A stretch of 62,531 nt of DNA, filler included, from Klebsormidium nitens (Eukaryota; Plantae; Klebsormidiophyceae), in NCBI GenBank assembly GCA_000708835.1. It is 5 parts of 5 records of this genome, joined end to end, with 100 filler letters (N's around TTAATTAATTAA, not from the genome) between each part and the next. Parts side by side here need not be neighbours in the genome. Positions count along the whole stretch, not along the records: positions 36,556 to 60,052 come from DF237891.1; 4 more parts are not named here. One strand, written 5' to 3'. Below, piece after piece: positions 39,810 to 60,765 of this stretch. The stretch's first letter is position 1. The number at the start of each line of letters is the position of its first letter. The notes under the pieces were generated by a model. That model was given only the letters and a program-made list of their open reading frames with translations, made no database searches and had not been told where the DNA came from. Both the position numbers and the translations under genes were made by a program.

Positions 39810-39994
39810 ATTCGCATGCAACTGTGATTGGAGTGTGTGAATAATAGCATTCCATTCCATCCTCACATGCATTCAAGAGTCTTTGGCAATGTTGGGGCAT
39901 CTGCAGCGGGCAACGGCTCTCGAAAGGTCAAAACGTACATCACACAGCTCCTTCTGCGAGCTTCAGACCACAGAAGGCCCGGCATCTCTTGCAC

Positions 39995-41187
39995 TCAGAG
40001 CTCGGCTGTGTCTCTCTTCCGCTTTGTCTTCCTTTGTATTGCACCATTGGATTGGCCTTGTCCCTCCCAACTGTAGCCATCATAAAACATGTGCTCAACG
40101 GTCACTTCGCGCACAGGCACGTGCATGAGGTGGTACTTGAGGCGCTCGACATATACATTCATGCGGGCTTCCATATGGCCTGGTTCCGGATGACGGGCAC
40201 CCCAAGCTTGTTGTACTTGAAACAGCTTGGGTGTTTTTCGCCATCTGCGGACGTGAAGCCGTCCGGATTGAACCGCAGCTGCACCTGAGGGCGATTGCCG
40301 GCATCCTGAAACAGCTCCATAAGCCTTTTGTTGTCGCACGAATAGTTGCTTGCAGAGTGTTGATCCTCGTCGCATTCCGAGTGCACGGTGTGGGTGTACA
40401 CATCGACAAAGATGTCAGGCCTCCGCGCCGAGCACCCGCCCTGAAGCCTCTTGTCGAAGGTGACTTCTGCAGTGTCTGGGAGAACGCTAGCCGCCTTGAT
40501 GTAGTCGACAAAGTGCTTCTCCTTGACCTTATAGTTCCTGGCAACCTTCTCGTCGGGAAACAGGTACACGAAACAACGCAGGCAGTAGCCCTTGTAGCGT
40601 TGTAGCGTGCTCTGAACGATAGTACCACAACCGTTAAGGCACATTCGGTTCACCAAGTTCACCATACCATCCGTCTTGCAGGCCGCGCAGTGGGTGGCCT
40701 GTCCACCCTCAAGTCCGAAGGACGGTTGTGCAGACTTGCAGTGGCACTTTGGATGATTCACATCCACCATGCCGTTCGTCTTGCAGGCCGCACAGTGGGT
40801 GGCCTGTCCGCCCTCGAGTCCGAAAGAAGGTTGCGCCTTCTTGCAGTGGCACTTTTGGCTCACCACGTCGACCATGTCGTCCGTCTTGCAGGCGATGCAG
40901 TGGGTGGCCTGTCCGCCCTCGAGTCCGAAAGAAGGTCGCGCCTTCTTGCAGTGGCACTTTCGGCTCACCACGTCTACCATGCCGTCCGCTCCCGAGAATG
41001 CAAGTGAACCGCGCTTCTTACCAAGCTGGGGATCCTCTCCCGAAGCGACTGCTGTGTGTGCAAGGACGCGCTCGACCAGAGCTCCCTCCATGATGCCAGC
41101 AGAGTTGCCAATCTCAACCGGAGCAGTCGCCCTAAGTGTTGACACAGGGGATGCCGCTTCCCTGGGAGCAGCCTCCATGTTGGCCAA
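39995..41187 (-). pseudogene. EsV-1-7-like Cys-rich repeats (3 x 34 aa) fused to a PD-(D/E)xK/Vsr-like endonuclease; 1-bp frameshift near 40175
   Basis: GMVDV..KCHCK.A.PSFGLEGGQATHC.ACK x3; RRPDIFVD...SECDEDQH...Y.CDNKRLMEL...LRFNPD. The alternate frame supplies the expected end ARMNVYVERLKY...EHMFYDG. Confidence 0.8.
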
Positions 41188-41289
41188 ATAGTTGCTACTC
41201 GTGGCCTGATCTGTTGCCCTAAGTGTCGATACGTAGGTGCCGTCGACTCTAACACGTCGTCATTATACGGGGGATGCTCAGCGCGCATG

Positions 41290-41545
41290 GCGCGCAAACA
41301 CGGAGGATTCAGAGCTGCCCCCTAGGAGGGAATCAGGGTGTCTGAGATTCTGAAAGACTTTTGAAAGTTACGCTCCATCTGCGTATGCGCGCAAGCTTGC
41401 CGTTCACTGTAAACGTTCCAATCATGCAGGGCATGCACTGCGCACATGGGGCACAAACACGGAGGATTCAGAGCTCTCCCCTAGGAGGGAATCAGGGCGT
41501 CTCAATTTCTCAAATACTTTTGAAACTTCTGCTCCATCTGCACAC
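41290..41545. repeat. Two diverged tandem copies of a ~159-bp non-coding unit
   Basis: caaacacggaggattcagagct..cccctaggag..aatcaggg...cttttgaaa.tt..gctccatctgc at 41295 and 41454. Confidence 0.8.
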
Positions 41546-41668
41546 GTGCGTGCGAGCCATCCATCCTAACATTCTTCAAATCATGCCGGGGTTTACTTGG
41601 AATTATAATAAAACGCCTGTGTCACCGTCTTATCTTCACATGCATGGTTGTACACCTGGGGCAAAACG

Positions 41669-43182
41669 CTACTCGGCTTGAGGCTTCAAAGAGACTCCCG
41701 CAAAGCCCCTGCAGCGCTTCGATTCAAACGTCATCTCTATCCCCTCGAATCCTATCGCATGCATGATCATACCAATACGCCTCTGGCCGAGCAGACGCCT
41801 GGGGATTTCACCGTACGTGGCAAATAGGTGCGCACGGAATTCCTTTGATGTTACCTTCTTCGACACCCCCACAACACACTGCTCTTCGACAAATCGCCTG
41901 ATCAGCTTCTCCACCTCGTTGTCGCGTGGAGAGGCTTTGGCATTTGGTGGGGCAGCACCTTGAACTTGCTGCTCGATGCCAAGGTTCTCGCCTCCATCCG
42001 CGACTGCCTGTGCTTCTCCTCCTGCCAGCACGATCGTTGTCGTTGCAGAGTCCTCTTCTGGTAGCTCTTCTGTACGTTCGGCGGTTGTGGACACCCAGCA
42101 GTCAGACAGAGCCATGTCTTGCAGTCGAGGAGCAGGCCTCACAGTGCTGGAGGTGGCCGACAATGTCCCCGCTTGCTCACAATCGGGAGAATTGGAACCA
42201 CGACTTTGCTCCCACCCGTCCAGCGGGTCAGCTGTTGGACTGCGAACTGCAGGAGGACTGCGAACTGCAGGAGGTTCAGCTGCAGCTCGCCCTGCTTGCG
42301 TCAGAGCTGCCAGCCTGAGCTCTTCCATCCTCAGAGCGTGATCCAATTCAGCCATGCGCACCTTAGCATCTATCTCGGCTTGTCGGGTCTTCTCCTTTGC
42401 CAGTAGAACCTCCTTACACTTCTCATCGTTGCTCGTGCCACCCACATAGAGGTGTTGGATCGTGTGTTGGCTCTTGTGGGCAGCCCTCTCTGCAATTGCC
42501 AGGACTGTGTCCCTGTCCACACGTTCTGGCAAGTGTATGATCTCTCGATGCACAGTGCCTCCGATCTCCACCTCTTGATGAAGTTCTTTGATCAGGGGGT
42601 CCTCCTTGAAGGAATCCTCGGCATCCTTTGGCCGATCCGCCTTCCATGCTCACTCCAGCCATTCCGCTTTTGGAGGTTGGTACTGCAACCGTACTTGTAC
42701 AGCTTCCCACTCTCACTGATACACGCAAGATATAGGCACCCTTGCTTGTCCAGAAGCATCTCCAATGCCTTCTCACGGGTCTCGATCGTCTTAAATGACT
42801 GTAGAGCCTCAACGTATGCATTCCTGATCGCTCGAAAGTACCGACGGACGCTGTCACCGACGGCCGTCTCTGTCCTCATGGCCAGGTCTTCGAAGCAATC
42901 CGTCGTGAGGAAGTATCTGTGGGCGACGGCACCACCTGTAGCATTGTCCTCAAATCTGATGAAACTCTCATTCTCTTTGTACTTATCCAGCCGGCGTAAG
43001 GCATTGGCCTTGGTGCTGTATTCCAACCACTGCCAGGCCTCGTCAAAGGGGACCGGATACTTGTTTCCGTGATCGTGGAACATTCCAACGAATATAGAAC
43101 CCAGTCGGTCCGTCATGCTCCTCTCGAATCCTTTTGAGATTGTCTCTAGAGTTGACGGGGTGATGATTTGCTGACTCGCCAT
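41669..43182 (-). pseudogene. MSV199/AntA-like N-domain + T5orf172(GIY-YIG)-like segment + coiled coil + D5/P4-primase-like C-terminal winged helix; broken by a frameshift and a stop near 42620-42670
   Basis: YPVPFDEAWQWLEYSTKANALRRL...YFLTTDCFEDLAM...VRRYFRAI; CLYL...YKYGCSTNLQKR; the third frame reads DAEDSFKEDPLIKELHQEVEIGG and continues into the 41669 ORF; IRRFVEEQC...VTSKEFR...GFAGVSLK. Confidence 0.6.
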
Positions 43183-43904
43183 CGTTACGGAGAGTCCTGG
43201 AATAATCTCGACCGTTTCAAACGCACTGGTCGCTAACCCTCACCAACATCGGCTCTGTTGGGCAATATCTGGAGGCCGTTGCCTCAAACTGTTTATTACA
43301 GTTTTCGTTGAAAGTGTCGCAGGTTGCGTGTAACGCTCGATTTTGATCAGGTGCGTTTGCTGCGTTTAAATGACCCAACTTTTTCCTAGGGAGATGGTAT
43401 GCTAACAGCCAATGTTGCATCACTGGGCTTCAATGACCTTGGACCCTTGCTCTCAGCGTGCCCCGTCACACACGGTATAGAGACCTTCATCCAAAGGCAC
43501 CATCTCAGTCCCTCCGATGGGACCTCAGTGATTCAGGTCGCGAGGTGTTCCGCAGGTGTACTCGTTATGGGTCGAAGGTCTATGGCATAGCTGAGGAATC
43601 ACAGCAAGTGTTGTCCTAAATTCAACAGTTTTTTCTGGTACCAGGCCTGCCTGGCGGCCAGAGGAAAGCCAGTTAACTCTGGTATTATTGCCATTTTCTG
43701 CTCTCTTTGTTTCCCCCGTTACGTTACAGGGGCGACAGTNNNNNNNNNNNNNNNNNNNNNNNNNNNNNNNNNNNNNNNNNNNNNNNNNNNNNNNNNNNNN
43801 NNNNNNNNNNNNNNNNNNNNNNNNNNNNNNNNNNNNNNNNNNNNNNNNNNNNNNNNNNNNNNNNNNNNNNNNNNNNNNNNNNNNNNNNNNNNNNNNNNNN
43901 NNNN

Positions 43905-44377
43905 TTGACAGCTGTATGGTTTGGCTGAAAGGCAAAGAGCGGCCAAAGCCATCGGCAAATCGAAGGGTGGCCCCTGCACCCCCACCCCCACCCCCTCCAC
44001 CTGGAAGATCGAAGCGGGCGACCAACATGTTTGAGACCAACCTGCGCGCACGCAGAGTCGCGGGGCATAATGCACCGGTTCTCGCCAAGGTAGCCCGGCG
44101 CTACACAGGGAGCAATCTGTCAAATGCCAACATTCTGCGCAATTACAGTCACAAGTACAAGTGGATCATGGATTCGGTCGCTCTGGCAGATGCAGAGCGC
44201 AAAAAGCTCAAGTTGCCCGTAAACGTGGTTGGCCATATCATTCCAAAGGTGAATAAGACGAAGCCTCTCACCGAACGAGACCTCGAAAGGCACTTTGAAA
44301 ACATTAAAAAAAAGGCTCAGAAAGCAAACATGTTGAGTGAGCTGCGTTCACGCCTAGCAAAACGGTCGGCAGTCTGA
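43905..44377 (+). CDS. Hypothetical protein (5' end in gap) with a poly-Pro tract and a basic C-terminal helix
   Basis: Open frame APAPPPPPPPPG...ANMLSELRSRLAKR; intronless. Confidence 0.55.
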
Positions 44378-44439
44378 GGGTTCAAAGGACTGACCGCGGC
44401 TTGGTGCTGGTCCACAATCTCGTTGTAGAACGTAACAGC

Positions 44440-45012
44440 ATGGTGATCGAGCACGAGTGCAGAGAGTACATGCTTCGAGCGATCGTGCAGGAGCCTGGAT
44501 GGAGGGTGGCAGAGGTGGGGGTGTTCCTGGGCGACCTCTCAGCATTCATGCTGTCACTGGAGCCAGCGGAGCTGCACCTCATCGACCCATTCGAGGGGCA
44601 GCTGGTTTCGGGCAATCGGGACGGTGACTCTATCCGCACGTGCCATGGGAACGATGCGATTGAGTATGTGCGGCGACGGTTCGAGGGTGACAACAGGGTG
44701 TTCATCCATCGGGCGTGGTCCCCGCAAGGACTGCTGCAATTCTACAGGGGGTACTTTGACCTCGTGTACCTGGACGGGTCGCACACTTACGAGGACGTGA
44801 AGAAGGATCTGGCGGCGGCCTTGACCAGAGTGAAGCCAGGGGGGTTCATCTGCGGACATGACTATGGGGCGAATCCGAAAAAGTGCCCTTTTGAGTACAC
44901 CTTTGGGGTGCGGCGTGCAGTGGACGAGTTCTGCAGGGATAACGACTTGCAAGTCTCACATGTGGCAAACGATGGATACATCAGCTTTGCAATCCAGCTC
45001 CCGCGAGCCTGA
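44440..45012 (+). CDS. Class I SAM-dependent methyltransferase (Methyltransf_24-like)
   Basis: VAEVGVFLGD (motif I), LHLIDPF, FDLVYLDGSHTYEDVKKDL, VKPGGFICGHDY. Confidence 0.9.
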   Translation: MVIEHECREYMLRAIVQEPGWRVAEVGVFLGDLSAFMLSLEPAELHLIDPFEGQLVSGNRDGDSIRTCHGNDAIEYVRRRFEGDNRVFIHRAWSPQGLLQFYRGYFDLVYLDGSHTYEDVKKDLAAALTRVKPGGFICGHDYGANPKKCPFEYTFGVRRAVDEFCRDNDLQVSHVANDGYISFAIQLPRA

Positions 45013-45212
45013 ACAGTCTCTAAACTCCTCCTAAACAGCATCAAAACTCCTCTCTGAACCTTGCCACCATCGTCACAGAATAGTTGTTCTTACCAGTCAG
45101 CATCTTTGAGCATATTGTCAAAGGCTGATACTCCGGGATATTGTAGCTGATTGTGTCAGAATAGACAACTCTAAGGGCCACTACCGAACTACACCATACA
45201 AAAGTCGATACC

Positions 45213-45640
45213 AGAATGAAGGTGTTACTACAAATTACACCTCTGAATCCTGAAGCTTCTAAAGCAGGTTCCTGAAGAAGTTAGTACAACACGATTGGAT
45301 CTCCAGAAAAAGGTGTTACTACAAATTACACCTCTGAATTCTGAAACTTCTGAAGCAGGTTCCTGAGGAAGTTAGTACAACGGCAAGTGCAACTACACCT
45401 TCTGATCCTGCAACCATTCACACCTAGTAATTCTGAAGCAGTTCCTGACATGCTAGTACAACACGACTGGATCTCAGAATGAAGGCGTTACTACAAATTA
45501 CACCTCTGAAACCTGAAACTTCTGACGCATTCTGAAGCAGTTCCTGACATGCTAATACAACACGATTGGATCTCAGAATGAAGGCGTTACTACAAATTCC
45601 ACCTCTGAATTCTGAAAGTTCTGAAGCATTCTGTTACTCG
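45213..45640. repeat. Intergenic tandem array, 4 copies of a ~92-99 bp unit plus a partial or divergent spacer
   Basis: agaatgaagg(t/c)gttactacaaattacacctctgaa starts at 45213, 45305, 45476 and 45575, with internal (t)tctgaa sub-repeats. Confidence 0.85.
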
Positions 45641-45790
45641 TAGAACTCAGAGTAACAAGAGTGCCTCAGATGGAACCATACTTTGCACTCCTCACGAGCT
45701 CTGCATGCACGTGCTACTGGGCGTGCACCTCGTCTGCCTGGACAAAGAAGATAGCGGGCATGCAGATTATTCTTACCTTGGAATAGAGCA

Positions 45791-46444
45791 ATGGAGTTTG
45801 TCGATGTTGTTGGGTCGAATTGAGAGGTGGATGTCTGCCTCCTCGAGGGGAACCACTGTAGGCCTTGGGTCCTCATCCGGCGATCGGAGGTCTTGAGGGG
45901 CATTGGAGGGGCACACGAGCTAGGGCTGTTTGCGGCGCGCCCGATGCCAGCGGGGACCATCATTGGGAGATACCTGGGCTTTGTGTTGGGAAAGCGAGGG
46001 AGAAGGCAAGTAGAGAGGGAGGCAAAGGTGCTGGAGGATGCGGGCAAGGCAGCCTACCTACTGACGATAAGGGGCATCATTGTGGACGGCTCAAGGCCAC
46101 CTCAGAGTGATGAGGAGCAGCTTGCGGTGGCTGGCACGGTGCTGTTCCCAACAGACGAGTACGACTACCCTGGGGCTCACATGCACATCATGAACGATGG
46201 GCACGGCATGCCGTATCCAAACAACGTCATGATTGACGCAGACGGGTTTGCCATCACAATGGTTGACGTTCCCGCTTACGCCCCAAAGGGCTCGCATGAG
46301 GCAAAGGCTCTGAGCGAACTCCTGTGGGATTACACGGACAGCTATTGGGAGATGATGGACTCTCTGCTGGCTGCAAACAAGAAGCGGAAGGGAGATGCAG
46401 CACGGAATGAGAGATATGCAAAGAGGGCGAAGATTGGGAAGTAG
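45791..46444 (+). CDS. Stand-alone SET-domain protein (vSET-like); probable ATG at 45791 followed by an in-frame TGA at 45821-45823
   Basis: IRRSEVL...LGLFAARPMPAGTIIGRYLG...HIMNDG...ELLWDY; intronless, no pre- or post-SET domains. Confidence 0.75.
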
Positions 46445-47823
46445 GCAGCTTTTTTGGCTGCGCCCACTGCTGCAGAGGCACCTTTTAACAATCATATAAG
46501 CCACATCTTGCAAGCCACGTCTGGATCCAGGTCACACTTGTGGGTTGCATGCACCGCTAGTCCACCGTCCATCACCTTTACGCACCCTACAGTATGCCGT
46601 CGATCGCCGACGGGTGAGCCGGTCCAAAAAATCGGTGACCTCGGGTATCAATTATGCACCTTCATTCACCGTCGTTCACCCAAAGCCACCCGCGTGTACC
46701 CGTTGGTAAGCCGTCGATCGCACAAAGTCACCTCTGAAGGACCGTCGATCACCCGAAGACACCCGCCGGTTAACCGGTTTCCCTTGACAGCCGAATATGA
46801 GCCTGGTGCGGTCAGGCCACCCGGGCGTCATACTTTTGGCAAACATTGAGGTAATTGATCGTCATACCTCAGACCCTGCCGAAACTTTCCAAAAGTTCCC
46901 ACATGGATTCACCAAGTCTCTTGACTCGGGCCCCTTCTTGCGAATCTGCATCATCAGGGGCTACTGTGGTGTCCCTCTTGGATTACAAGCCTGTTTTCAA
47001 GAGGACCACCTCCATAGAGTGCCCAAGAGGCGGCTGCAACGAGAGGTACGTCATGGTGCTGAGCTCAAGCAGGTTTGCAAGAAGATTCTGAGCTGGCTGT
47101 TGAGCTGCACGATGAACATGATAAGTGTTCTGAAGAGTCTGACATGTCTTGTCAGTCTCTGTGCAGGTACTTGGCGGAGACCAAATGGTTTCACGAGCTT
47201 GTCTGCTGCAGTGTGCACTGCCCGCGCAGCTTTGAGGTCTCTGGACAGCGGGTGGGCTGTACATGGTCGGGGAAGCGCGAAGATCTGGCCGGCCATGCTT
47301 GCTGCATGGAGGATGCTGAGGAGGTCTTTCGACTGGCCCTCCAGCTAGGTTACGCAATCAACCGCATGGTGAACCCCCCAAGCAAGCTGCCAGAGGTTTT
47401 TGTGCACAGCTCATATAACAAGACCTTTGCATGTTCGGAGACAACACAATCGTATAGGACGGCTCCGGAGACAACACAATCGTGTAGGACGGCTCTTTCT
47501 GTAGGAAACTGAGGTCAGAGTTGGAATAGTGAGACAGTAGGTTTTTGTAAATACAGTGGGCCGCTTTCTGTCGTTGGGACAACATAGGTGCCAGTGAGAG
47601 AGTCAGTCACGGACACTGAGTCTGGATATGAAGCAACCAAGAATGTAGAATATTAGAGTGAACAGCAAGCTTGCGCGGGTACACAGATGGCGAACAAATG
47701 TCAGCTTTTTGATTGTAGGGAGGGGAGCCAAACCCCTGTGTATCTGCGCACCTGCGCAAGCCTTGATCATCACACCAAATGTACGTTTCCAAGCATTGCC
47801 TGTGGCTTCCTCACTGTCAATCA

Positions 47824-48059
<236 letters not shown>

Positions 48060-48282
48060 TTGGATGCTATCTGTATTGTGCTGAGATAAAGTTCTTATGA
48101 GCTTTGGTGCACATCAGTATGACACCATCGATGCTTAGGGAATAGAGATCTGGCAGCACGAGCATTTGCAGTACGGGCTACGGTCGTTGGGGGCTTAAGG
48201 AAAAGAGATTTGGCAGCAAAGACATACCATAAGAACCATGGCGACCAAAGTGTGCAGGACCATAACGCAACGGACATTGTAA

Positions 48283-51200
48283 TCAGGACAGGTTCACCTT
48301 CTTTGCCGTAGTGCTCTTGTTGTATGCTTCTTTGGGGCAGGCTTTCCACCCATACACACCACCGCCCTTGGAAACTGATTTATGATGCTGCAAGCGTCCA
48401 CTTGAGTTCCTGGTCCTTCTGAAGACGCCATACGTGGTTGGCCGCCCATCTGAAGTGATGAGGTTGTGATTCGCATATGTTCTGGGGATAGTTGGACTTG
48501 CAGTGGGTGGTCCAAAGTTGCTTCTAGCACTTGTCCATTGGCCACTTGTGTTGGGCTGGGAAGGTCCAGCATTGTTCTGAGCGGTCTCTGCTGCCTGAAG
48601 ATGGTCTCGAGCTTTTGCTATGTGCTGAGCGGCAGCTGCCGCGTTCCTGGCCTTGATTGCATTGTTAGCTTCGACTACGCTGGCTGCTGTCTGGTGGGCA
48701 TCGGGGGCATTAGGATGCAGATTGTTGACCGCCTCCTCAATGTGNNNNNNNNNNNNNNNNNNNNNNNNNNNNNNNNNNNNNNNNNNNNNNNNNNNNNNNN
48801 NNNNNNNNNNNNNNNNNNNNNNNNNNNNNNNNNNNNNNNNNNNNNNNNNNNNNTGGGAGCTTTGTGGGATCCTTTCGAGATTGCCTTGCGAGGACCGAGC
48901 GTTCCTCTGGAGCGCATGACGGGTGCTATTTGAGCAGTTTTTGCTTGACCGCGGTTCTGCTGGGAAGGTCCGACGTTCTCTGCCGCCTCCAAATGTTCTC
49001 GAGCATTCCCCACGTGCCGTGCTGTGTTGGTTGCATTCTGGGCATTCATTGCGTTTGTTGCCTCGACTATACTGGCTGCTGTTTGTGCGGCATCTGGTGC
49101 ATTGGCTTGCAAGTGGTTGAGGGCCTCCTCAATGTGTTTGTTTGCAATGGCTTGGTCCTCCCCATTTGCCATCGCATTGAGGGCTGCATGGACGTGTGCA
49201 CGTGCCCGACGATTCCTGGGAGGGTCACTGTACATCCTCATGTTCTGTGCCGAGGGGCCACCCCGGGGTGGGTACACGCCACTTGCATACCGAGTGGCTG
49301 GCTTGCTTGTCCTCCCACTACTTCGAGGGACACGGCTCTGTGCGCGTGCTAGAATGCCCGGGTAGATTTCGTCCAAGCAACGTTCCAGAATCTTTAGCTT
49401 CGCAGGGGGGGTCTTTAAGGTGAGCCTGTTGTATCTTTTCAGGACTTCTGCTTCGGACAGCTCTTTCTCGTCCCAAAGACCCGCTTTCAGCAGGATGGTC
49501 TTGCAAGGACTGAGCGTTCCCCTCTGTACCCTGGGCATCTGATGCCGCAGTGTCCCGGGGCGGAGTACGGGTGCTCTTTGCCTCCCACTGCTTTGAGCTT
49601 GGTGGGACAGAGTACCCCTGGTTAACGGCCTCACGAGACCTGCCAGGTCCTCTGCGTTTGTAATCATGTGTGGCTGGAGCATACCTGTGTTCCCGTCTCT
49701 TAATGCAGCCAATCGTCTCTGTATTTGATCCAATTCTACGTTGTTGGAATGAGTAGGACGTGCTTGGGATGGCCCAGCATTGTTTTGAAGGACTGCCTTG
49801 CCCTTTCGATTCCGTTGTCTCTGTTCATTCTCCGCTCCGTGCAAAAGTTCCCGAGCATTTGCTACATGCTGGGCGGCAGCTGCCGCGTTTCGGGCATTGA
49901 TTGCATGATTTGCTTCGACTACGCTGGCTGCTGTCTGGTGGGCATTGGGGGCATCAGGTTGCAGGTTGTTGACCGCCTCCTCAATGTGTGCGTTTGCGAT
50001 TGCTGTACCCTGGCCACTTGCAACCGCATCAAGGGCTGCCTGGACTTGTGCACGTGCGCGACGATTCCTGGGAGGGTCACAGTACATGTTCATGTTTTGT
50101 GCCGAGCGGCCACCCCGGGACGGATAAACGCCGCTTGCGTACCGAACCACCGGCCTTCTTGTCCTTCCACTTCTTCGTGGGACGCTCGGGGCGTTTGCTG
50201 CGTGACCCCCAAAGCGAGGCCAAAGCCGAGGCCAAGGCCATTTCGAGGTCTTTTGGTGCTGGGCAGACGGACGTTCGAGAAATCTGGAGAAGCAGGATTC
50301 CCCGCTTTACGCTTTGGCACTCTCGTCCTTCCAGCTGTTGCTGTGTGATTGGGTCTCTCCATATAGCTGCGGACCCTTTGGCGTCGAGATGCGTCCCTGT
50401 CGCGTTTCTGTTGTCTTCTGGACAAGGGGTAGGGCGCGCTCGTCACGTGAACGCGCTTGCGCCTGGGTTTTGGACCGTAGAATGTGCGGGCACTCCTTTC
50501 TTCATCCACATTCAAGGCAGCATCTTCGTCACTCGAGTTGGAAGATTCAACCCTCTCGAGATAGCTTCTGACCCGTTGGCGTCGAGATGCGTCCCTGTCA
50601 CGTTTTTGCTGTCTTCTGGACAAGGGGTAGGGCGCGCTCGTTACGTGAAAGCGCTTGCGCCTGGGTTTTGGACCGTAGAAGGCACGAGCGGATCTCTCTG
50701 CTTCTCTCATCCTTTCTTCGGCGGCACGGGCTTCCTGTCGCCTTCTCAGGTTGTTGTGCCGCGTGTCTCTCTGAGGTCGCGCGTAGGGACTAGGGCGCGG
50801 GGGGCGTGAGTGGTGTCGAAATTCTGGTCCCGTGGGCCTGGACGTCGAGCTTTGAGCACCGTAGAATGATGTTGCATCCCTTTCTGCCTCCGTGTCCGCC
50901 GCTGCTTGGGCTGCACGGACTTCCGCGTTCAGCTGGTCTTGGGATTTCATCTTGAAGCACTCACTGACGCGCTGGAAGTAGTCTTTGGAGTCGACGCCGT
51001 ACATTGCTGTCTTGTCAGGATGGAACTTTAGAGACCACTTACGAAAAGCTTTCAGAGTCTCAGCCTCCGTAGGCTTGCGGATGTTTTTCAGGAGCTCCTC
51101 GCAGCTTTGTTTAGCACTGGAAGCAATGATGGATTCGAGCTCCCGCTTTTTGGCATTCTTCTCTTGCCTCACGCGATTGACATTTGCTGCGTGATTTGGG

Positions 51201-52402
51201 CCGTGGTGGGAAGGCCCAGCATTGTTCTGTGCAACTGCCTTGCCCTTTCGGTTCCGTTCCCTTTGTCTTTTCTCCGCCGCCTGAAGATGGTTTCGAGCAT
51301 TTTCTACATGCTGAGTGGCATCTGCCGCGTTTTGAGCATTGATTGCACGGTTTGCCTCGATCACACCGGCTGCTATTTCGGGAGCATCCGGGGCATCAAC
51401 TTGCAGGTGGTTGACAGCCTCCTCAATGTGAGCGTTTGCGATTGCTGCATCTCGACCGTTCACCACTGCATCAAGGGCTGCGTTGACGTGTGCACGTGCC
51501 TCAGGATCCCTGGGGGGGTTACTGTACATCCTTCTGTTGTGTGCCGATCGGCCACCCCGCGGTGCATAGTTGCTGTTTGTGAAGCGAACCACTGGCGTTC
51601 TTGTCCTCCCGCTTCTTCGTGGGCCAAGCGTGTGGGGCTTTTTAAAGATGGTCTTGCGAGGACCTAGTGCTTCTCCGTGTACCCCCGAGCGCGTCGCGGG
51701 CACTCTTGGCCTCTCGCTACCTTGAGAAGCATTTATGTCATCGACTGGATTGTCGTGATTGACATCCATATCATCTACAACATCCTCCTGTGGGGTTTGA
51801 GGGTGGGTGGACGGCCCAGCATTGTTTTGAGCACGTGTCTTTCCCTTTCGGTTTCGTTCTCTCTGTTCTTTAGCTTGCACGGCCATCTGCCGGAGCTCTG
51901 CAGAGAGCCCCTCCCGCCTCGTACCTTGACCGCTTCCGACAAACGCCCTCCTCGGTGCGACTTGCCCCCCACTCCTTGCCAGGCCGTGCTGCTCGCCTCT
52001 CGGTCGGTCGAGGCCAGCAAGGGAGTCATCTTCGTCTGAATCACCCTCATCGAGCAGACCCCCATACAGCTGCCGGTTGATATGTTGCTGTACTCTGTTT
52101 CGAGCCGCAGCTGCACGCTGTTGTTGCTCCCTAACCTCTGTTGCGTTTCGTTGCTGCTGCTGGTATATTTGATCGACCCATGCATCATCTTGAACGGTCT
52201 GGAAGCAGTCAATCACTCTCTGGAGAAGTTCTGTTTGACCATACCTGGCAGTATACTCTTGGACCCAGCTTTCAAAACGAGACCTTGCATCATTCTCGGT
52301 CAGACCGGGTTCCCATATACCTAGGACCCTGAGGATGTCCGTACACGGCATGCTTCGAGCGAGGCGGGCACAAACGTCATCCACATTGGTAGTCGTCCCC
52401 AT
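48283..52402 (-). CDS. Giant (>1300 aa) repeat protein with an internal J-domain and four ~95-aa Ala/Asn-rich modules; frameshift near 50200-50250, gap at 48745-48853
   Basis: TLKAFRKWSLKFHPDKT (HPD motif). The module Y..RGG.SA.N..MY..PPR..RARAHV.AAL.A...AIAN.HIEEA.N.LQ..AP recurs near 51250-51620, 49860-50150, 48960-49290 and 48580-48745; stop TGA at 48283. Confidence 0.7.
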
Positions 52403-53472
52403 ATCTGCACGTGGCGGGCGTGCATTCGGGCCTGCTNNNNNNNNNNNNNNNNNNNNNNNNNNNNNNNNNNNNNNNNNNNNNNNNNNNNNNNNNNNNNNNN
52501 NNNNNNNNNNNNNNNNNNNNNNNNNNNNNNNNNNNNNNNNNNNNNNNNNNNNNNNNNNNNNNNNNNNNNNNNNNNNNNNNNNNNNNNNNNNNNNNNNNNN
52601 NNNNNNNNNNNNNNNNNNNNNNNNNNNNNNNNNNNNNNNNNNNNNNNNNNNNNNNNNNNNNNNNNNNNNNNNNNNNNNNNNNNNNNNNNNNNNNNNNNNN
52701 NNNNNNNNNNNNNNNNNNNNNNNNNNNNNNNNNNNNNNNNNNNNNNNNNNNNNNNNNNNNNNNNNNNNNNNNNNNNNNNNNNNNNNNNNNNNNNNNNNNN
52801 NNNNNNNNNNNNNNNNNNNNNNNNNNNNNNNNNNNNNNNNNNNNNNNNNNNNNNNNNNNNNNNNNNNNNNNNNNNNNNNNNNNNNNNNNNNNNNNNNNNN
52901 NNNNNNNNNNNNNNNNNNNNNNNNNNNNNNNNNNNNNNNNNNNNNNNNNNNNNNNNNNNNNNNNNNNNNNNNNNNNNNNNNNNNNNNNNNNNNNNNNNNN
53001 NNNNNNNNNNNNNNNNNNNNNNNNNNNNNNNNNNNNNNNNNNNNNNNNNNNNNNATAAGCCGAGGAAATTTGTCGACTATGGTTATGTGAAGTATGTGCT
53101 TGGAGGCAGCTTATTGACATGCTGGGTACTTTTGGCTCATTCCGCCCGAAGTTCTTGTACTACAGCTGTGACATGCCTCTGCACGTTGCTCTATCCGCTC
53201 GACAAGTGGTCCCGAAATTCGCGGTCCGAATAGCTTGGCGTTCGATTGCCCTTTCCTAAACACCTGGCGATGAGACGTATCTACGGAAGAGCTTGGGATT
53301 CACTTCGGCCCCCGGGGTGAATTGCTCAACAGCTTTGAAATCAATCAGGAGGCCAAGGACCAGCAGAGCGATAAGGCAGTAGTAGAGAAACATGCTTGCA
53401 TACACCTTGTGAACAAAATCAGCTGCTTCGGTTAGCTTGCCATGAATTTTTTCCGACAACCATGTAACAGCT

Positions 53473-53606
53473 ATGAGGGCTTCTATAGTCCCAGTCCTGG
53501 TGCTTGCCATGCTGACCACATCTGTCTCTTCTGCAAGCGTCGCTCGAAGATCTCTCCTGTGTGCGAATCACACCTGCCACAACGTCACTCAAACGCCTGG
53601 CCCGGA
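53473..53606 (+). pseudogene. Truncated paralog of the secreted Pro-rich protein at 55840
   Basis: MRASIVPVLVLAMLTTSVSSASVARRSLLCANHTCHNVTQTPGP, near-identical to the N-terminus of the 55840 gene; runs into an N gap and the downstream sequence is unrelated. Confidence 0.7.
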
Positions 53607-53712
53607 NNNNNNNNNNNNNNNNNNNNAAAGTTCACACGGTGTTGACCTGCATTTGGACCCGTGCCAGTACTCGCAAATGCCACATGACGACGTCCACTCG
53701 TCCCTCTACTAA

Positions 53713-54195
53713 CTACAGGACGCGCGATTGGGCTTGTGCTAGTATCCACCCCCCTGTTTTGCCTGCTTCCGACACTGGCATCAGTACCTCTGCCAATGCC
53801 TCCGATCTGTAAGCCCACCTTGACTCCCCCGACCTGCGTGCCTCTGTTGAATCGTCCTGTCTGTGTGCCCATGTTGACTCCCCCGACTGTGTGCCTCTAT
53901 TGAATCTTCCTGTTTGTGTGCCCACACCGCCCCTCCTGACTGGTTGGGGCCTTGTCTGTCCTCTAAAGGTCTGACGGCAGTGTCTGTGTTGCCAGCAGAG
54001 CGTGCTGCCAAGCTCTGCTAAACGCGAGCACTGCCTGTGACCGGTCTTGACCACACACATGCACCGTGCTAGAGCAGGACTGCGCTGAGTTGCACTGCTA
54101 CCGCATGCCTGATGGAGATGACAGAAGCGGGATTGAGCTATGGCAGGGAGGGAGCAGCGACGCCCCCGTTGCGTTCTGCAAGCACACTGCATCAC
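53713..54195 (-). CDS. Small Cys/His zinc-binding repeat protein (DUF5763-like C..T..G..C...C..H x2) with a GTQTGRFNR repeat tail, probably frameshifted
   Basis: CACRTQRGRRCSLPAIAQSRFCHLH and CMCVVKTGHRQCSRLAELGSTLCWQH. Confidence 0.5.
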   Translation of the reverse strand: MMQCACRTQRGRRCSLPAIAQSRFCHLHQACGSSATQRSPALARCMCVVKTGHRQCSRLAELGSTLCWQHRHCRQTFRGQTRPQPVRRGGVGTQTGRFNRGTQSGESTWAHRQDDSTEARRSGESRWAYRSEALAEVLMPVSEAGKTGGWILAQAQSRVL

Positions 54196-54311
54196 TTACT
54201 CGTAAGCCGAGGAAATTTGTGGACAATGGTTATAGGAAGCCCGTGACATTGATTAGAAATTCCGCACCCTTTCAAAAAGCAGTACTGTAGTGACTGTACA
54301 AGTGTAGCAGA

Positions 54312-55562
54312 TCACACAATTGCGTCCAGGCAACAGTCTGTAATGGTAAATGCCTCATCCTCCATTATTGTTGGCTTGCCGTCCTTCAGATCGTAGTACA
54401 TGTATTGAACGTACAGACCTTCTGATTCCATCTCTGCTGCCTCATCAATGGCTTCGAGCAGACGTGCCTCTCGAATCTTGCGTGTGACCGCTGCTCGCTT
54501 CCCGTCAATCTGGAACGCATGAGGGTTGTAGCGAATGATGTGCACGGGCAGTGAGTTGCCTTCGATGGCCCACGCCTCGTAGATCTGCAGCATTCGTGCC
54601 ACATCGCAAGCCACTCCGTAGCCTTCGTGCTGGTACTCGTCAACCTCGATCACAATGATCTTCCCCTTGTGGTCGAGGATGAAGTCAATACGCGCGAACG
54701 AGCCCCCCAAGCAGTCAAAGGTCACATGATGCTCGCGCTTGAAAGGGAGTCCGGCCTTTGTGAGTAGCTTGGCAATCCGCTCCTCCTCGCGCTTCCGACG
54801 CTGCTGGCCCTCCTTCGTGTGGTAGTAGAAAGTGTGTGTCTTCAGGGGGTCGCCCCTCGAAAATGCTTCCTCGCAGTCTGCTTCGATGCACTTGTATGGC
54901 TTCTCGCCCGTATGCGTGCGCTCGTGCAACGTCAGATGTATACTTTGTGCGAAAGCTTTACCACATCCGGGATGAGAGCACGCATACGGCTTTTCACCCG
55001 TATGTGTACGCTCGTGCGTTCGAAGCTGTGTGCCTTGCGTAAAAGCGGCGCCACAGCCTGAGTAAGTGCATTTAAACGGCTTTTCGCCCGTATGTGTGCG
55101 CTCGTGAGACCTTAAGGCGCTGAGGTGTGAGAAAGCGGCTCCGCAGTTGAAAAAGGTGCATTGATATGGCCTCTCGCCCGTATGTGTGCGTTCGTGCTCC
55201 TTTAATTGGTCAGCCCTTGCACAAAGGGTGCTGCAATCTCGAAAAGAGCACTTGAAAGCCTTCTCAGCGGTATGCTGCGTGACTTTGTGTCGAGCAAGGG
55301 TCTTACTTCTGTTGAATTCAGCATCGCAATCTGGATGATCGCATTTGAATTCCTTTTCGTCGGTGTGCACCGAGGATTTGTGTTGAGCAAGGTTATCGCT
55401 TCTCGTGAATTTGGCGCCACAGTCCTGATGATCACACTTGAAAGCCTTCTCGTCAGTATGCACCGTGGATATGTGTCGAGCAAGGCTGTCAGTTCTTGTG
55501 AATTTGGCACCACAATCTCGATGATTGCACACGTACCACTTTTGCACGACTGGAGAAGCCAT
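54312..55562 (-). CDS. Intact 8x C2H2 zinc-finger array fused to a PD-(D/E)xK/Vsr-like endonuclease (416 aa from M at 55562)
   Basis: Eight C-x4-C-x12-H-x3/4-H fingers, four TGE(K/R)P linkers; C-terminal ARIDFILDHKGKIIVIEVDEYQHEGY...CDVARMLQI...IIRYNPHAF...VQYMYYD; no stops, no introns. Confidence 0.9.
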   Translation of the reverse strand: MASPVVQKWYVCNHRDCGAKFTRTDSLARHISTVHTDEKAFKCDHQDCGAKFTRSDNLAQHKSSVHTDEKEFKCDHPDCDAEFNRSKTLARHKVTQHTAEKAFKCSFRDCSTLCARADQLKEHERTHTGERPYQCTFFNCGAAFSHLSALRSHERTHTGEKPFKCTYSGCGAAFTQGTQLRTHERTHTGEKPYACSHPGCGKAFAQSIHLTLHERTHTGEKPYKCIEADCEEAFSRGDPLKTHTFYYHTKEGQQRRKREEERIAKLLTKAGLPFKREHHVTFDCLGGSFARIDFILDHKGKIIVIEVDEYQHEGYGVACDVARMLQIYEAWAIEGNSLPVHIIRYNPHAFQIDGKRAAVTRKIREARLLEAIDEAAEMESEGLYVQYMYYDLKDGKPTIMEDEAFTITDCCLDAIV

Positions 55563-55839
55563 GTTGAATTGATGCTTCTTGGGGTCCTGCAAGTCCCTAA
55601 GCAATGATTCTGTGCTGCTCAGACGCCTGGTGATGCCATGAATCTCTGAAAAAGTGTTGGATTCACCTCGGCCCATGGAGTAAATTGCTCCACAGCTTTG
55701 AAGTCGATCAAGAGGCCAAGGACCAGCAGAGCAATCAGGCAGTAGTAGAGAAACATGCTTGCATATACACCTTGTAAACAAAATCAGCTTGCTTCGGTTG
55801 GTGTGCCATGAATTTTTTCCGACAACCATGGTAACAGCT

Positions 55840-56481
55840 ATGAGGGCCTTTGTAGCCCCGTTCTTGGTGCTCGCCATGCTGACCATGTCTGCCTCTGCTG
55901 CAAGCATCTCTCGAAGATCCCTATTGTGTGCCAATCACACCTGCCATAACGTCACTCAAACACCTAGCCCGGAAACACTTCCAATCTCGTACAATTACCC
56001 GCCTCCAATGACAACACAGAGCTCTCCCCCACCCCAGCCAACAGAGACACAGAGCCCTCCACCTCCTGCAACAGAGAGTCCAACACTACCACCAAACCCC
56101 CCTCCTCCAATTCAGACTGAGGCTCCAACACCCGAACCAACTGAAGCCCCCACCGAAGCGCCCACTGCAACCCCAACTGAGGCTCCCACCCCAATTCCCA
56201 CACAAACGGAAGTCCCTTGTGTAAATACCACAGATGCACCCTCTCCTGAGCCTGCAATCGCGCCTGCTCCCCAGCCGATTGCACCGGCTCCGACTGTGCA
56301 GCCATCCCCCCCGCCAGAAATCCTGCCCATAGAGGCTCCAAGCCCAGCCCCCGCTCAAGCCCCTTGTGACGAACCGAGTCCCTCACCTGTCATTGCACCC
56401 GCACCAGCGCCATCAGAAGACCCCATGCAGGTCTGCTACAACTCATATGAACTGAAGAGCTGCACTTGCAAGTGCAACTAA
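55840..56481 (+). CDS. Secreted Pro/Thr/Ala-rich (HRGP/AGP-like) protein with terminal Cys motifs
   Basis: Hydrophobic signal-like N-terminus MRAFVAPFLVLAMLTMSASA; TEAP/PAPAP repeats; ends CYNSYELKSCTCKCN; intronless. Confidence 0.75.
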   Translation: MRAFVAPFLVLAMLTMSASAASISRRSLLCANHTCHNVTQTPSPETLPISYNYPPPMTTQSSPPPQPTETQSPPPPATESPTLPPNPPPPIQTEAPTPEPTEAPTEAPTATPTEAPTPIPTQTEVPCVNTTDAPSPEPAIAPAPQPIAPAPTVQPSPPPEILPIEAPSPAPAQAPCDEPSPSPVIAPAPAPSEDPMQVCYNSYELKSCTCKCN

Positions 56482-57156
56482 GCTGCCCTCAACAAAACCT
56501 TTGCGGACTATACCGAGCATGTCACTGAATCAGACTCAGATACTTGCACGCATCAATGATGTCAGACGCAAGCATGGGGCACCCGCCCTTGTTTGAGACG
56601 AGGCCCTCGCCAGGTGTGCTCAGGACTGGGCGAATCGGAAGCAGTTCGTTCACTCGACCGACCGGCAGTACGGGGAGAATCTGGCAAAGGTGTGGAGCTT
56701 CGAGCCGGACATGCACACCGCAATAGATCNNNNNNNNNNNNNNNNNNNNAATCGGCTCTCGCCAGGGACGCGCTGCGTGTATGACACGACTGGCGGCGCA
56801 AAGACCGTCCTTTGCCGGGAGCGTGGGTTTGAGACGTATCGAGACATCAATGGTGCGAAGGAGCATCTTCCTCAAGCAAAGGCAATTCCGTCCACCCAAT
56901 CCGGATGATTTCTTCCCATGATGCGAGCAGGCTGAGCGTTGACACCCCGTGCACTGAGTTATCGCACAATTCTTAGTGTTTTCGATTCGAATTGGATTCT
57001 TGAACAAGACATACATGTTCCTACTAACACCTGCATAAACTTCAAGCACAGAGTGGCGTAGACACTATTTTACTCAAGGGCTGGTTGTGCCGCTCAGTGT
57101 ACATTCCCTGAGCAGCAAAGCGGTTGCAAAATATTTGCCCATGTCCTTTAGAGTAG

Positions 57157-57867
57157 ATGCCATACATCCCGTCCCCCATTCGAATGCGGCCAAAAAGGAA
57201 TGATCCACACTGGTTGAAGTGGACACCGGACACTTATGACCGATACCTGACACAGAGCTGGTACACACCAGAACGCCTTGCAAAGGCAATGTCATCTATA
57301 GTCGAGCGGGACATACAGTCAACCGGGGGGAAAAGTCATGATTGGTCGATGTGGGACCCAGCTGCTGGTAGCGGGCGATTGTACGAATGCTTCACGAGCC
57401 GCAATCGCTTTGCATCTGATCTGCGAGGGACAGACTTTCCATGCAAGAGTGACAAACGATTTTTTGGGGGCATAGACTTCCTCAAAAACGTTCTTCAGCC
57501 TCTGGTTACACGCAAGCAGATATATTTGATTGTGAATCCGCCTTTTGGGGACCTCACATGCCACTTCATAAACAGGGCGTTTGATGGGACCTACCCTGTC
57601 AAGCGTGCTCTGTTTTTGGTAAGCGGTGCAGCAAACTCCGCCCGCTATCTTGACAAGGTTGATTACTCACGCTGTGTGCTTGTTCAGAAGAGCAAACCAT
57701 TCACGGCAGACTTTGAGATCCTGCTCGAGCCCCGTCAAGGGGGGCTACCAAAGTATCGGTCAAACAAGCAGAACGTGCAACTCATGCTGTTTTACTCATC
57801 CCATGAATACAAGGCAAACTCGAATCTGCTCACCAAGAGACGAAAACAAATGCTCCGTGTACCTTGA
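57157..57867 (+). CDS. Putative N6-adenine (or N4-C) DNA methyltransferase, gamma-type motif order
   Basis: WYTP (motif X), WDPAAGSG (motif I), IDFL, IVNPPFG (motif IV); intronless. Confidence 0.8.
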   Translation: MPYIPSPIRMRPKRNDPHWLKWTPDTYDRYLTQSWYTPERLAKAMSSIVERDIQSTGGKSHDWSMWDPAAGSGRLYECFTSRNRFASDLRGTDFPCKSDKRFFGGIDFLKNVLQPLVTRKQIYLIVNPPFGDLTCHFINRAFDGTYPVKRALFLVSGAANSARYLDKVDYSRCVLVQKSKPFTADFEILLEPRQGGLPKYRSNKQNVQLMLFYSSHEYKANSNLLTKRRKQMLRVP

Positions 57868-58619
57868 GCCTTCCCTTTTGATGTTGCCTATGTTCAGGAG
57901 ATGCGATAACGTCCTTTTGTCTAATTTATATGCCAAACTGCTTTTTCAGCCTCTTGCTGAGCTTCAATGCATCTGCCAACTCGTGGATCCTATCCGGATA
58001 GAAAACCCTAAGGTGATCAAGAACTCTTTTCTTGTGTGTTGCGCTGATGTTATGGTGGACGGGATGTACTGCTGTTCCTGGGTGTGGACACACAGGGCAA
58101 CTGAAAACCTTGGCATTCCTGGGCCCGGTATTCTTGGACCGTAGCGCAAAGACCTCTGCATCCAAGGTGTTGATCTGGGGTGGCGCTTCGCTCTGAACCT
58201 GGATCTGACAATGGCTCTCCCACCCTTCGTTTGCCGAGCTCTTGTCATCCTCAACCTGCGGGGAATGGGACTACATGTCGAGTTTGCACATCAGTATCAG
58301 CTAACAAAGCAGTAATCCCACTTTCTCTAAATGCAGTCTTGCCAACCATTTTATTGCACTGGGGACCACGGACCATTGTTGTTATCCAGAACATTCCTTT
58401 CAGTTGATTCCTCACCGATGGGGGGGCAACCAGTAGACACTGTACCCTGTTTTGAGGGGGTAATGCTACCTGCATCAAATGATGGAATTATGTGAGATGT
58501 TCTCTACGCCTGCAGTGTGGCAATCCTCAGCTTTGACTGTAACAATCAGTTTGACATATGAATCGAGAAATGTCAGTTGAGGACGTCTGCCAACGCAGTA
58601 AAATGTCCAGGCACTGCAA

Positions 58620-59849
58620 CTAAAATGTGTGTACTAACACGCTGTGGTTACCTGCCTGTGTATCTTGCATTGCTCCGTCCAAGTACTGACGGGCTACAGG
58701 GGGGATGTGTCTTTGCTCCATCCTCTCTGCAATCTCCCGCTCCTCCTGCATTGTCAAGAGTCTACCCTTCAAAGCTTCCTGTTGGTCGCACATCTTGGCA
58801 CATGCCTCGGTCTTGCGCCTGAGGCACTCGAGCGCAAAATGCCTTTGATCCTCGCGCGCTCTGATGGCAGCTTGCTGCCCTTCCCTTGCAGCCTGTATTT
58901 TCTCCACCTCCAACTGCTGCCTTCTATTCTCTACTTCTGCATGCAACTTCAGCGTCGCCGCGTTCTCCGTGCTCAACTTAGAACAAATGTCCATTGCTAC
59001 ATCTACACTGTCAGCAACACCGTGCTGCTTAGGTGAAAACCGCTTGCCTGCAGGAGCCTCATTGTCTTTCTTTTGGGCCCCGCGCTTCTTCCCAGCATGT
59101 TTCTTCTCCGGCTGGTTTGAATAAACTAGCACTTTCTGTGGCCCAGCGTCTGTCTGCTCGTAGACTGACAATGTGCTCCCCGCTGACTGCCATACTGTAC
59201 TCCTCAAGAGAGACTCAATGAAGGCCACAATTGCGCCCAGCTCTTCGAAAACCAGGCGCTCACCACTGGGAGGATTTTGGAGCTCGCACAGCATGCTGAT
59301 GTGCCCCTCGTAAGTCAAAGCAGACCCCCCCGCATCCTCAATCCGCTGGAATGCGTTCTGGAACATGGTGGCCAGCTCCGTTGAGTCTTGACCATTCTGA
59401 CCTCTAGACTGGGCAGTATACTTGAGAGACCCATTTGATCGCAAGAATAAGCTGACGCCTCTGTGACACAGCAGTGGTCCAGTGGAGTAATTTGGGGTCC
59501 TCAAGGTCAGGTTTGCTGATTCTAGTAACTCCTTGAAACAAGGATTTGTGACCTTGGAGCTGGATACAACAGTCGAGCATTTGCGCAATGCCTCCCAGGA
59601 TGGTCGGCACAAGAAGAATCGCCCATCCCGCCTTCCTTTTCTGCTTTCAAGGTAATCAGGCATGGCTGCCTTGATTGCTTCATCACTTCCGGCTGGTGGT
59701 GTTTGCCCCGCCATCACAAAGCTCTCTAGCGAAGAGAGTGGCTTCGTCAAACTTTGGAATGTACTCTTGGAGAAAGCTCCTTGTTTTGTTAAAACTCCCC
59801 GGATTTGGTGCAAACGACAATACGCCAGGTATTGACTTAGATCATACAT
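58620..59849 (-). CDS. Hypothetical protein (409 aa) with a basic NLS-like patch and a C-terminal coiled coil
   Basis: Long uninterrupted ORF; KKHAGKKRGAQKK; E/Q/R-rich heptads; no family recognised. Confidence 0.6.
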   Translation of the reverse strand: MYDLSQYLAYCRLHQIRGVLTKQGAFSKSTFQSLTKPLSSLESFVMAGQTPPAGSDEAIKAAMPDYLESRKGRRDGRFFLCRPSWEALRKCSTVVSSSKVTNPCFKELLESANLTLRTPNYSTGPLLCHRGVSLFLRSNGSLKYTAQSRGQNGQDSTELATMFQNAFQRIEDAGGSALTYEGHISMLCELQNPPSGERLVFEELGAIVAFIESLLRSTVWQSAGSTLSVYEQTDAGPQKVLVYSNQPEKKHAGKKRGAQKKDNEAPAGKRFSPKQHGVADSVDVAMDICSKLSTENAATLKLHAEVENRRQQLEVEKIQAAREGQQAAIRAREDQRHFALECLRRKTEACAKMCDQQEALKGRLLTMQEEREIAERMEQRHIPPVARQYLDGAMQDTQAGNHSVLVHTF

Positions 59850-59893
59850 TCTTAAAAGTGCTGCCAATTGGAAATATTACCAGAGAACATCTT

Positions 59894-60039
59894 TTTGGCG
59901 CAAATTTGGGGACAATGATGTACGTGGAGCTCACCTTTTCTCGTCCAACTTTTTTTGGCGCAAATTTGGACGAAGTGTGTGTTGACGCAAAAAAAGAATT
60001 AATCCACAAAATATGGTCATCGCTGCCCAAGTTTGGCGC
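59894..60039. promoter_or_regulatory. Three E2F-consensus sites (TTTGGCGC) upstream of the 58620-59849 ORF
   Basis: Exact TTTGGCGC at 59894, 59954 and 60032; the first two lie within an identical TTTTTGGCGCAAATTTGG. Confidence 0.5.
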
Positions 60040-60765
60040 CTGGACACGTGTANNNNNNNNNNNNNNNNNNNNNNNNNNNNNNNNNNNNNNNNNNNNTTAA
60101 TTAATTAANNNNNNNNNNNNNNNNNNNNNNNNNNNNNNNNNNNNNNNNNNNNCTGCATACGCGCAATCCCGGAGTCGCGTCGCGCGTGCGGTTATCCGAC
60201 CTTATCTCAAAAGTACGCACACTCGGTACGTACCCGATTTGGTACTCGCGACAGCCGGGCACTAAAGTGCACGCCGGGTCGACGTGGCTCAATTGCGGTC
60301 ACGGGCGATGAATAACCGGGCGCGATCTTCATGCAATGGACATGCAAACGGTGGCTCATGGCCACATGCAATTCCTCTGGGAAACCCTAACGGCGTGATG
60401 GGTGGAAACCCTATATGCACGAATGGCGAAAAGCCTTACTAACTAGCATGAGGCACAACTAGCACGTGCATCCGAGCCGTCACGGCAACGAGGCCACACA
60501 GCGTGACAATGACGGTAAAGTCGAATTGGATGATGGTGCCGCTTTGCAGGGCTCATCAAAATTGCCTTAAGTATCAGTGCATATAATGCAACGCCTTGAC
60601 TTCCATCCGGTGCTTTGATTTCCAGAAAAGAACCCAGAGCATGAGATAGCCGGCCACGAATGCCAATCACTCTTGCCAATCATGATTTCGAAGGAACGGA
60701 AGCTTGATTTTTGAGATGCTTGACGGATCGCGGAGAAGCCTGGGCCTGATCGATTTGGCCGGCCC

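Follow-up and report, generated by a model that had tools for sequence, protein, structure and literature searches.

Introduction

Among the systems described so far, the EDxHD endonucleases, which include I-Bth0305I, have DNA-binding modules at the N-terminus followed by a Vsr-like domain at the C-terminus (accessible text of PMC3239194 and PMC3943268), and are encoded either inside an intron or by a gene that is free-standing (accessible text of PMC3239194). The structures of Vsr (1cw0), 3hrl and I-Bth0305I (3r3p) form one clade, listed for prokaryotes in the accessible text of PMC3424549. In T4-like phages, the free-standing enzymes Seg, Mob, Hef and F-CphI are encoded by optional genes placed between conserved genes, and cut the neighbouring gene in genomes that lack their own, as far as the accessible text of PMC2988022 and PMC6083498 describes them. 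A layout termed 'collaborative homing' is known for F-CphI (accessible text of PMC6083498).

Here we analysed a window (the whole stretch of DNA under study, 62,531 nucleotides) from Klebsormidium nitens (GenBank assembly GCA_000708835.1), which holds a gene for a protein of similar layout, with a predicted Vsr-like domain behind N-terminal DNA-binding modules. Genes of its family are likewise optional and can lie between conserved genes, and cutting of the neighbour in gene-less genomes is proposed here by analogy with the phage enzymes. The best reading of the sequence comparisons, and in our judgement a probable one, is a free-standing homing endonuclease that is retargeted through its zinc fingers. 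The wider proposal, that natural zinc-finger nucleases number in the hundreds in giant viruses, where they home into core genes, are reprogrammed through their arrays and often bring along a recoded target end, is tentative, and we place it slightly on the doubtful side.

Results

The finger array

The first-pass annotation had proposed an intact, intronless ORF with eight C2H2 fingers, and both points were confirmed: the ORF translates throughout without a stop codon, and a pattern scan recovers eight fingers, starting at residues 12, 43, 74, 105, 135, 165, 195 and 225, with helices identical to those first reported (RTDSLAR, RSDNLAQ, RSKTLAR, RADQLKE, HLSALRS, QGTQLRT, QSIHLTL and RGDPLKT). 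In the Pfam scan of the 416-residue ORF, zf-H2C2_2 (E 1.7e-36) and zf-C2H2 (E 8.9e-27) were matched. The array is built as two blocks, with 93-bp repeats forming fingers 1-3 and 90-bp repeats fingers 4-8. The proposed TGEKP-type linkers hold for the second block, where four canonical Krüppel-type linkers lie between fingers 4 and 8, but not for the first three linkers, which are non-canonical. Similarly, the Zif268-like R-x-D type describes only half of the helices: Arg at -1 is found in five of the eight fingers and is combined with Asp at +2 in four, the other half being of other type. The public K. nitens gene model KFL_009420060 (P0002; window 54315-59300), which is the best match and the same locus, splices the nuclease to antisense and unrelated upstream frames, and the true ORF is not annotated as such.

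Table 1 Coordinates of the features of the nuclease gene, its scaffold and the window
Feature	Position	Strand	Remarks
Zinc-finger nuclease gene	54312..55562	-	416 aa, uninterrupted ORF, intronless
Array of eight C2H2 fingers	54819..55529	-	aa 12-248; pattern scan
Linker helix and predicted Vsr-like nuclease domain	54315..54818	-	aa 249-416; E260, D293, E306, D308, E309, H312
Optional segment	54267..55595	.	1,329 bp: gene, 45 bp behind it and 33 bp before it
Mid-array replacement	54891..55471	-	paralogous X1 contig has 395 other letters, 186 bp shorter (two-finger length)
Paralogous flank copy	53055..53606	.	85% to 55623-55973 (351 bp); 89% to 54203-54239 (37 bp)
Upstream flank ORF	55619..55756	-	45 aa; copy in duplicated segment; no Pfam family
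Downstream flank ORF	53713..54192	-	159 aa, Cys/His-rich; weak CCCH match, E 0.02
Scaffold with the nuclease gene	36556..60052	.	23,497 bp, intron-poor virus-like genes
Sel1-repeat gene	37078-38103	+	one stop codon splits the gene
EsV-1-7-repeat protein sharing the nuclease domain	40159-41178	-	31% over 81 aa
Methyltransferase-like ORF	57157-57867	+	236 aa; DNA adenine methyltransferase-like motifs by eye
Artificial N44-12bp-N44 spacers	11984-12083, 28370-28469, 36456-36555, 60053-60152		window is five joined scaffolds/parts

The predicted nuclease domain

The last finger and the C-terminal domain were modelled with AlphaFold2 from 25 sequences (pLDDT 88.9). Compared with 48,161 chains, this model is closest in fold to Vsr (1cw0; Z 8.0, rmsd 5.4, 125 aligned), followed by 3hrl (DUF559-type; Z 7.3) and I-Bth0305I (3r3p; Z 7.0, rmsd 4.0, 97 aligned). 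All three stand in the top five, a coherent ranking with middling Z values, and Z 8.0 is what the tool grades as a possibly common arrangement. A Vsr-like fold of the C-terminal domain is thus supported by the model, in line with the Vsr/DUF559-type nuclease suggested in the first-pass annotation. The nuclease assignment is drawn from the fold; the Pfam scan of the C-terminal 168 residues returned no family above cut-off and, as its only sub-threshold match, NERD (E 3.6e-4). A Foldseek search of the PDB with the nuclease model gave no match at E ≤ 0.001, and neither did a PDB sequence search give a match. A homodimer prediction made without an alignment scored 0.05, which speaks neither for nor against a dimer.

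The acidic and His residues that had been expected of such a nuclease are all found in the sequence (Table 1). Counted over 171 stored proteins without a motif filter, in the rows covering each column, E260 is present in 166 of 167, D293 in 168 of 168, E306 in 169 of 170, D308 in 170 of 170, and E309 and H312 each in 169 of 170. E260, D293 and H312 follow the E-D-x-H-D order, an order taken from the sequence and not from residue-level superposition, with E306, D308 and E309 as additional residues; the last acidic position of the motif (320) is Asp or Glu.

Breadth of the family

At E ≤ 0.001 the nuclease domain alone retrieved 1,811 clusters out of 1.84 billion, and the stricter E ≤ 1e-10 left 637; some of these clusters are finger-less. 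Among the best 150 family members, C2H2 fingers occur in 124, with a maximum of 17. Homologues with diverging helices, which the first-pass annotation had suggested looking for, do exist: 761 distinct helices were counted in the 764 fingers of these 150 members. The family is mostly a giant-virus one, and the Atlas clusters (searched with the homologue P0008) are mostly Nucleocytoviricota. None of the structure neighbours is named for a function; they are giant-virus proteins, for example a C2H2 protein of Heterosigma akashiwo virus (E 3e-13). The relatives in IMG/VR have at least two fingers in 18 of 20 loci; the own clade of the window gene was not recovered from IMG/VR with exact patterns, the five matches being EsV-1-7 nucleases. 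Distant relatives bear other Cys-rich repeats, with at least two C2H2 patterns in 3 of 65. In prokaryote genomes, a weak search with single-protein patterns gave 46 pattern matches, none of which was a relative. Three further proteins labelled K. nitens are present among 26 matches.

Some relatives depart from the simple layout. Finger-only ORFs lie directly before the nuclease genes at L032:3817-4257 and L043:9520-9912 (split arrays), and at L033:1201-4101 a long unrelated ORF runs in frame into the nuclease.

The scaffold of the window copy

Since the window is joined by artificial spacers, the real neighbourhood of the nuclease gene comprises only positions 36556-60052. This scaffold holds virus-like genes, which, together with the mostly giant-virus family, supports the viral context claimed earlier. 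We infer from the gene content, the decay and the further algal copies that the scaffold is endogenous giant-virus DNA in the algal genome; it showed neither a capsid nor a polymerase gene, and no host gene flanks it. The algal copy is likely frozen in this viral DNA, as a gene with eight C2H2 fingers and a predicted Vsr-like nuclease. The decay of neighbours described in the first-pass annotation is seen in the Sel1-repeat gene, which is split by a stop codon, and in two further genes that by eye seem frameshifted. Pfam also gave weak SET and DnaJ matches on this scaffold, and none for the methyltransferase-like ORF, 1.6 kb from the nuclease gene.

Several other features of the window were noted. 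The C-terminus of the EsV-1-7 nuclease seems to run on in another frame (39998-40414), tandem repeats of 99 bp lie at 45167-45627, and the long ORFs at 48300-53100 (minus strand) contain a module of 170-400 bp four times and match DnaJ weakly. Outside this scaffold, an integrase-like ORF with a terminal PHD finger (12652-13668, plus strand) is likely part of an LTR retrotransposon, and a perfect 41-bp inverted repeat (36318-36444) lies at the end of the preceding scaffold. CxC4/KDZ-transposase-like frames at 60724-62467 (plus strand) belong to the next scaffold, so the KDZ-transposase-like gene (60.7-62.5 kb) was ruled out as a neighbour. An Rfam scan of the window gave no match. In run X5, 169 of the 200 changed places in 53055-56729 are C>T or G>A, as in bisulfite-treated DNA; the low change rate in the X5 contigs hints at dense methylation, with the likeness filter biasing that rate.

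Optional presence and array turnover

An empty allele is given by a 311-bp contig of run X6, from another study and under another organism label, which joins 54266 to 55596 and whose flanks show 5 differences from the window in 106 letters and 2 in 205. It is known from this one contig of one run, a second run giving a weak, different join, and could represent either the state before insertion or a loss. Run X6 also has pieces of related nuclease genes at 86-89%. The optional segment has no terminal inverted repeats and no target-site duplication.

The array itself differs between copies. In a paralogous contig of run X1, which is possibly the source of the window and so not independent of it, the first and last fingers are kept and the middle differs (Table 1). 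The paralogue P0004 has a nuclease 96% identical over 139 aa and different fingers, and two low-depth contigs show changes at codons within the helices of finger 2 and finger 3 (40 of 83 rows, by hand). In the paralogous flank copy, 167 unrelated bp take the place of the nuclease gene. Different middle fingers in paralogues at what seems to be the same site would sit badly with one fixed target. The window copy is intergenic and adjoins small non-core genes, and no recoded gene end could be found in its flanks. What is established for this copy is its optionality and its family membership alone; its cleavage activity, its target, its homing and its endogenous state are what we infer.

Insertion sites of the relatives

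For the comparison of insertion sites 70 loci were fetched, of which 68 yielded an ORF, and after 22 duplicates, fragments and finger-less loci had been dropped 46 were examined. The nuclease gene lies directly upstream of the major capsid gene in 5 of the 46 loci, upstream of a DUF5901-like gene in another 5, upstream of one unnamed gene in 3 and behind topoisomerase II in 1, these names coming from a Pfam scan of five neighbours, one example per type. Most of the 46 loci have varied neighbours, none recognised as core genes with five neighbours Pfam-scanned.

A quite different role, without self-spread, would be that of a DNA-binding regulator, of a restriction enzyme paired with a methyltransferase or of a gene domesticated by the alga. 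We regard it as very improbable, the least probable of the readings weighed here. Databases do label the relatives merely as C2H2 proteins, and near the window copy there is the methyltransferase-like ORF (57157-57867), with the nuclease ORF intact among decayed genes. Against such a role stand the near-invariance of the active-site-type residues, the optional and intronless state of the gene and its mostly Nucleocytoviricota relatives; moreover, no methyltransferase recurs by eye as a direct neighbour in the 46 loci.

The DUF5901-like gene was followed in the best 80 of 128 loci and two more, which gave 60 distinct alleles. The nuclease gene is upstream in 5 of these 60 (three of them in the earlier locus set), and in a FastTree tree of the gene body the five occupied alleles fall on five branches, each beside nuclease-less alleles, a scatter read directly from the tree and seen in the DUF5901-like relatives. 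In four of the five carriers, the original 5′ end of the gene is stranded upstream and a new 5′ end is found behind the nuclease gene; stranded and new ends are 67-73% identical in nucleotides and 78-97% in amino acids. In two carriers the stranded start runs in frame into the nuclease. The remnants end at codons 43-45 in seven of eight distinct remnants, and codon 46 or 50 encodes a changed amino acid in 5 of 5 carriers vs 6 of 55 other alleles, a contrast that the Fisher value overstates because the alleles are related. Between L076 and L158 the carried 5′ ends share 92% identity, vs 73% for the gene bodies.

Stranded starts without a nuclease gene were observed at L092:1291-1425, L106:3001-3129 and L112:568-696. 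Two of these three nuclease-less alleles have a recoded start and the third, L112, has a native-type 5′ end. The remnants are likely scars of an invasion followed by loss.

Illegitimate insertion with a long target duplication, or ordinary recombination, could leave similar ends that diverge later, with no site-specific cutting. The 85% flank duplication in the window would fit, as would the 139-bp repeat (96%) on both sides of the nuclease gene in L012, which restarts a nuclease-like frame. However, the stranded ends of L076, L077, L092 and one L158 remnant are 92-98% identical to nuclease-less alleles and only 61-73% to the adjoining carried end; the carried ends are alike across distant hosts, and the remnants stop at one place. 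We therefore consider this explanation highly unlikely. Since the stranded end is native-like and the carried ends are alike across hosts, the new end would have arrived with the element. A flank duplication is present at 7 of 43 loci (window included) and absent from the other 36, and in distant non-C2H2 relatives such duplications are rare and short (3 of 53).

At L010:774-1068 a group I intron lies in the start of the capsid gene, right behind the nuclease gene. Other arrangements were also observed: group I introns in the gene upstream of the nuclease gene (L012:8015-8400 and 8855-9181); a minus-strand gene whose 3′ end is duplicated (72%) on either side of the nuclease gene (L036:675-860 and 2139-2324); and, at L006:10627-10700, first codons of the capsid gene that by eye seem AT-richer than the rest, like a co-converted start. 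EsV-1-7 and C2H2 nucleases do not share one site: the two kinds adjoin the DUF5901-like gene at opposite ends.

Finger helices and insertion site

In 16 pairs of nucleases inserted at the same site, identity is 0.54-0.57 at helix positions -1, 2, 3 and 6 vs 0.44 at six non-contact positions. The 10 pairs from different sites, with nuclease identity of 0.70-0.95, show the reverse, 0.21-0.32 at contact and 0.53-0.61 at non-contact positions. The comparison was made under three register rules, and the pairs are hand-picked, with overlapping members, and hence not independent, and L044 has no assigned site. This pattern fits fingers that would read an unchanging target as long as the site is the same and be remodelled on moving.

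The alternative of a viral weapon, which would cut host or co-infecting virus genomes at sites unrelated to its own position, with fingers shaped by an arms race, draws on the same helices. Their diversity is extreme (761 of 764 distinct), fingers are swapped among the paralogues of the algal locus, and several copies occur in one algal genome. Contact positions are, moreover, less conserved than non-contact ones family-wide, in every identity bin, although the register was chosen on non-contact positions, which favours that outcome. On the other hand, helices are conserved at a shared insertion site, and the recoded neighbour-gene end of the carriers would be needless for a nuclease aimed elsewhere. 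We consider a weapon unlikely as the main role; homing and the exclusion of competitors are not mutually exclusive and can coexist.

Discussion

Homing into gene-less genomes is favoured because of the empty allele at the algal locus, together with the recoded ends, the scattered occupancy and the site-linked helices in the relatives. Of the roles listed in the first-pass annotation, homing thus gains comparative support, while attack on the host and exclusion of other viruses gain none. In the mechanism we propose, the fingers would bind, during a mixed infection, a long stretch of a gene-less genome that lies at the insertion point or close to it, and the C-terminal domain would nick or cut beside it. 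Repair off the carrier genome would then copy in the nuclease gene and some flanking DNA. In some clades the copied flank would be the recoded end of the target gene, making the carrier resistant, and an intron in the target gene may be an alternative protection. At new sites, the array would be remodelled by point changes of contact residues or by gain, loss or swap of fingers, with the nuclease domain staying nearly unchanged.

Zinc-finger nucleases are taught as something that people devised, and a large viral family has the same layout. If the homing mechanism is correct, this would be a new DNA-recognition strategy among homing endonucleases, with contact residues tracking the insertion site, and, within the literature searched, the first broad class of giant-virus homing genes beyond inteins and introns. 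The position and stranded gene end of each member would point to its target, yielding a natural library of arrays and targets, and the finger-target pairs, many with non-canonical helices, would test the C2H2 recognition code. The compact, FokI-independent nuclease domains would already be tuned to finger arrays and may serve in editors. The algal copy suggests viral DNA as a route by which nucleases of this kind reach eukaryotic genomes.

Mobile endonuclease ORFs make gene hybrids in fungal mitochondria, as in Allomyces atp6, where a replacement end of the target gene is carried and the original stranded, as in the DUF5901-like clade. Those elements are of the LAGLIDADG/GIY-YIG type and act on 3′ ends in organelles, whereas here it is mostly the 5′ end, in giant viruses. 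PRDM9 places DNA breaks with a fast-changing finger array and has this array in common with the present family, but is without a nuclease of its own.

No description of C2H2 arrays fused to this nuclease was found in a full-text literature search that covered few subscription papers. The family is not described in the accessible text of PMC10448965, PMC11788076, PMC12584671 and PMC3424549, whose supplementary annotation tables may name members. The EDxHD enzymes appear to share the Glu, Asp, His order, as read from the sequence, and have NUMOD/HTH modules (accessible text of PMC3239194), whereas the window protein has eight C2H2 fingers over aa 12-248, an additional invariant E-x-D-E cluster in its family and relatives in eukaryotic giant viruses instead of phages. 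Since the NUMOD/HTH region is missing, we do not file the protein as an EDxHD member and liken it to these enzymes by its working. The free-standing phage enzymes have other catalytic folds and binding domains, I-TevI's zinc finger being a single distance ruler and not a base-reading array. The arrangement of intron and nuclease gene in L010 is the 'collaborative homing' layout of F-CphI (accessible text of PMC6083498).

The EsV-1-7-repeat nucleases of giant viruses (PF19114) have the same nuclease domain, with Cys-rich repeats instead of C2H2 fingers. In the R2 retrotransposon proteins (PDB 9dou, 8gh6), natural C2H2 fingers likewise guide a restriction-like nuclease, but these are few and are combined with Myb and a reverse transcriptase. 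Engineered zinc-finger nucleases have the same N-terminal Krüppel-type array and C-terminal restriction-fold nuclease; they use the FokI domain, whereas the family described here is natural, with a predicted Vsr-like domain and up to 17 fingers in relatives.
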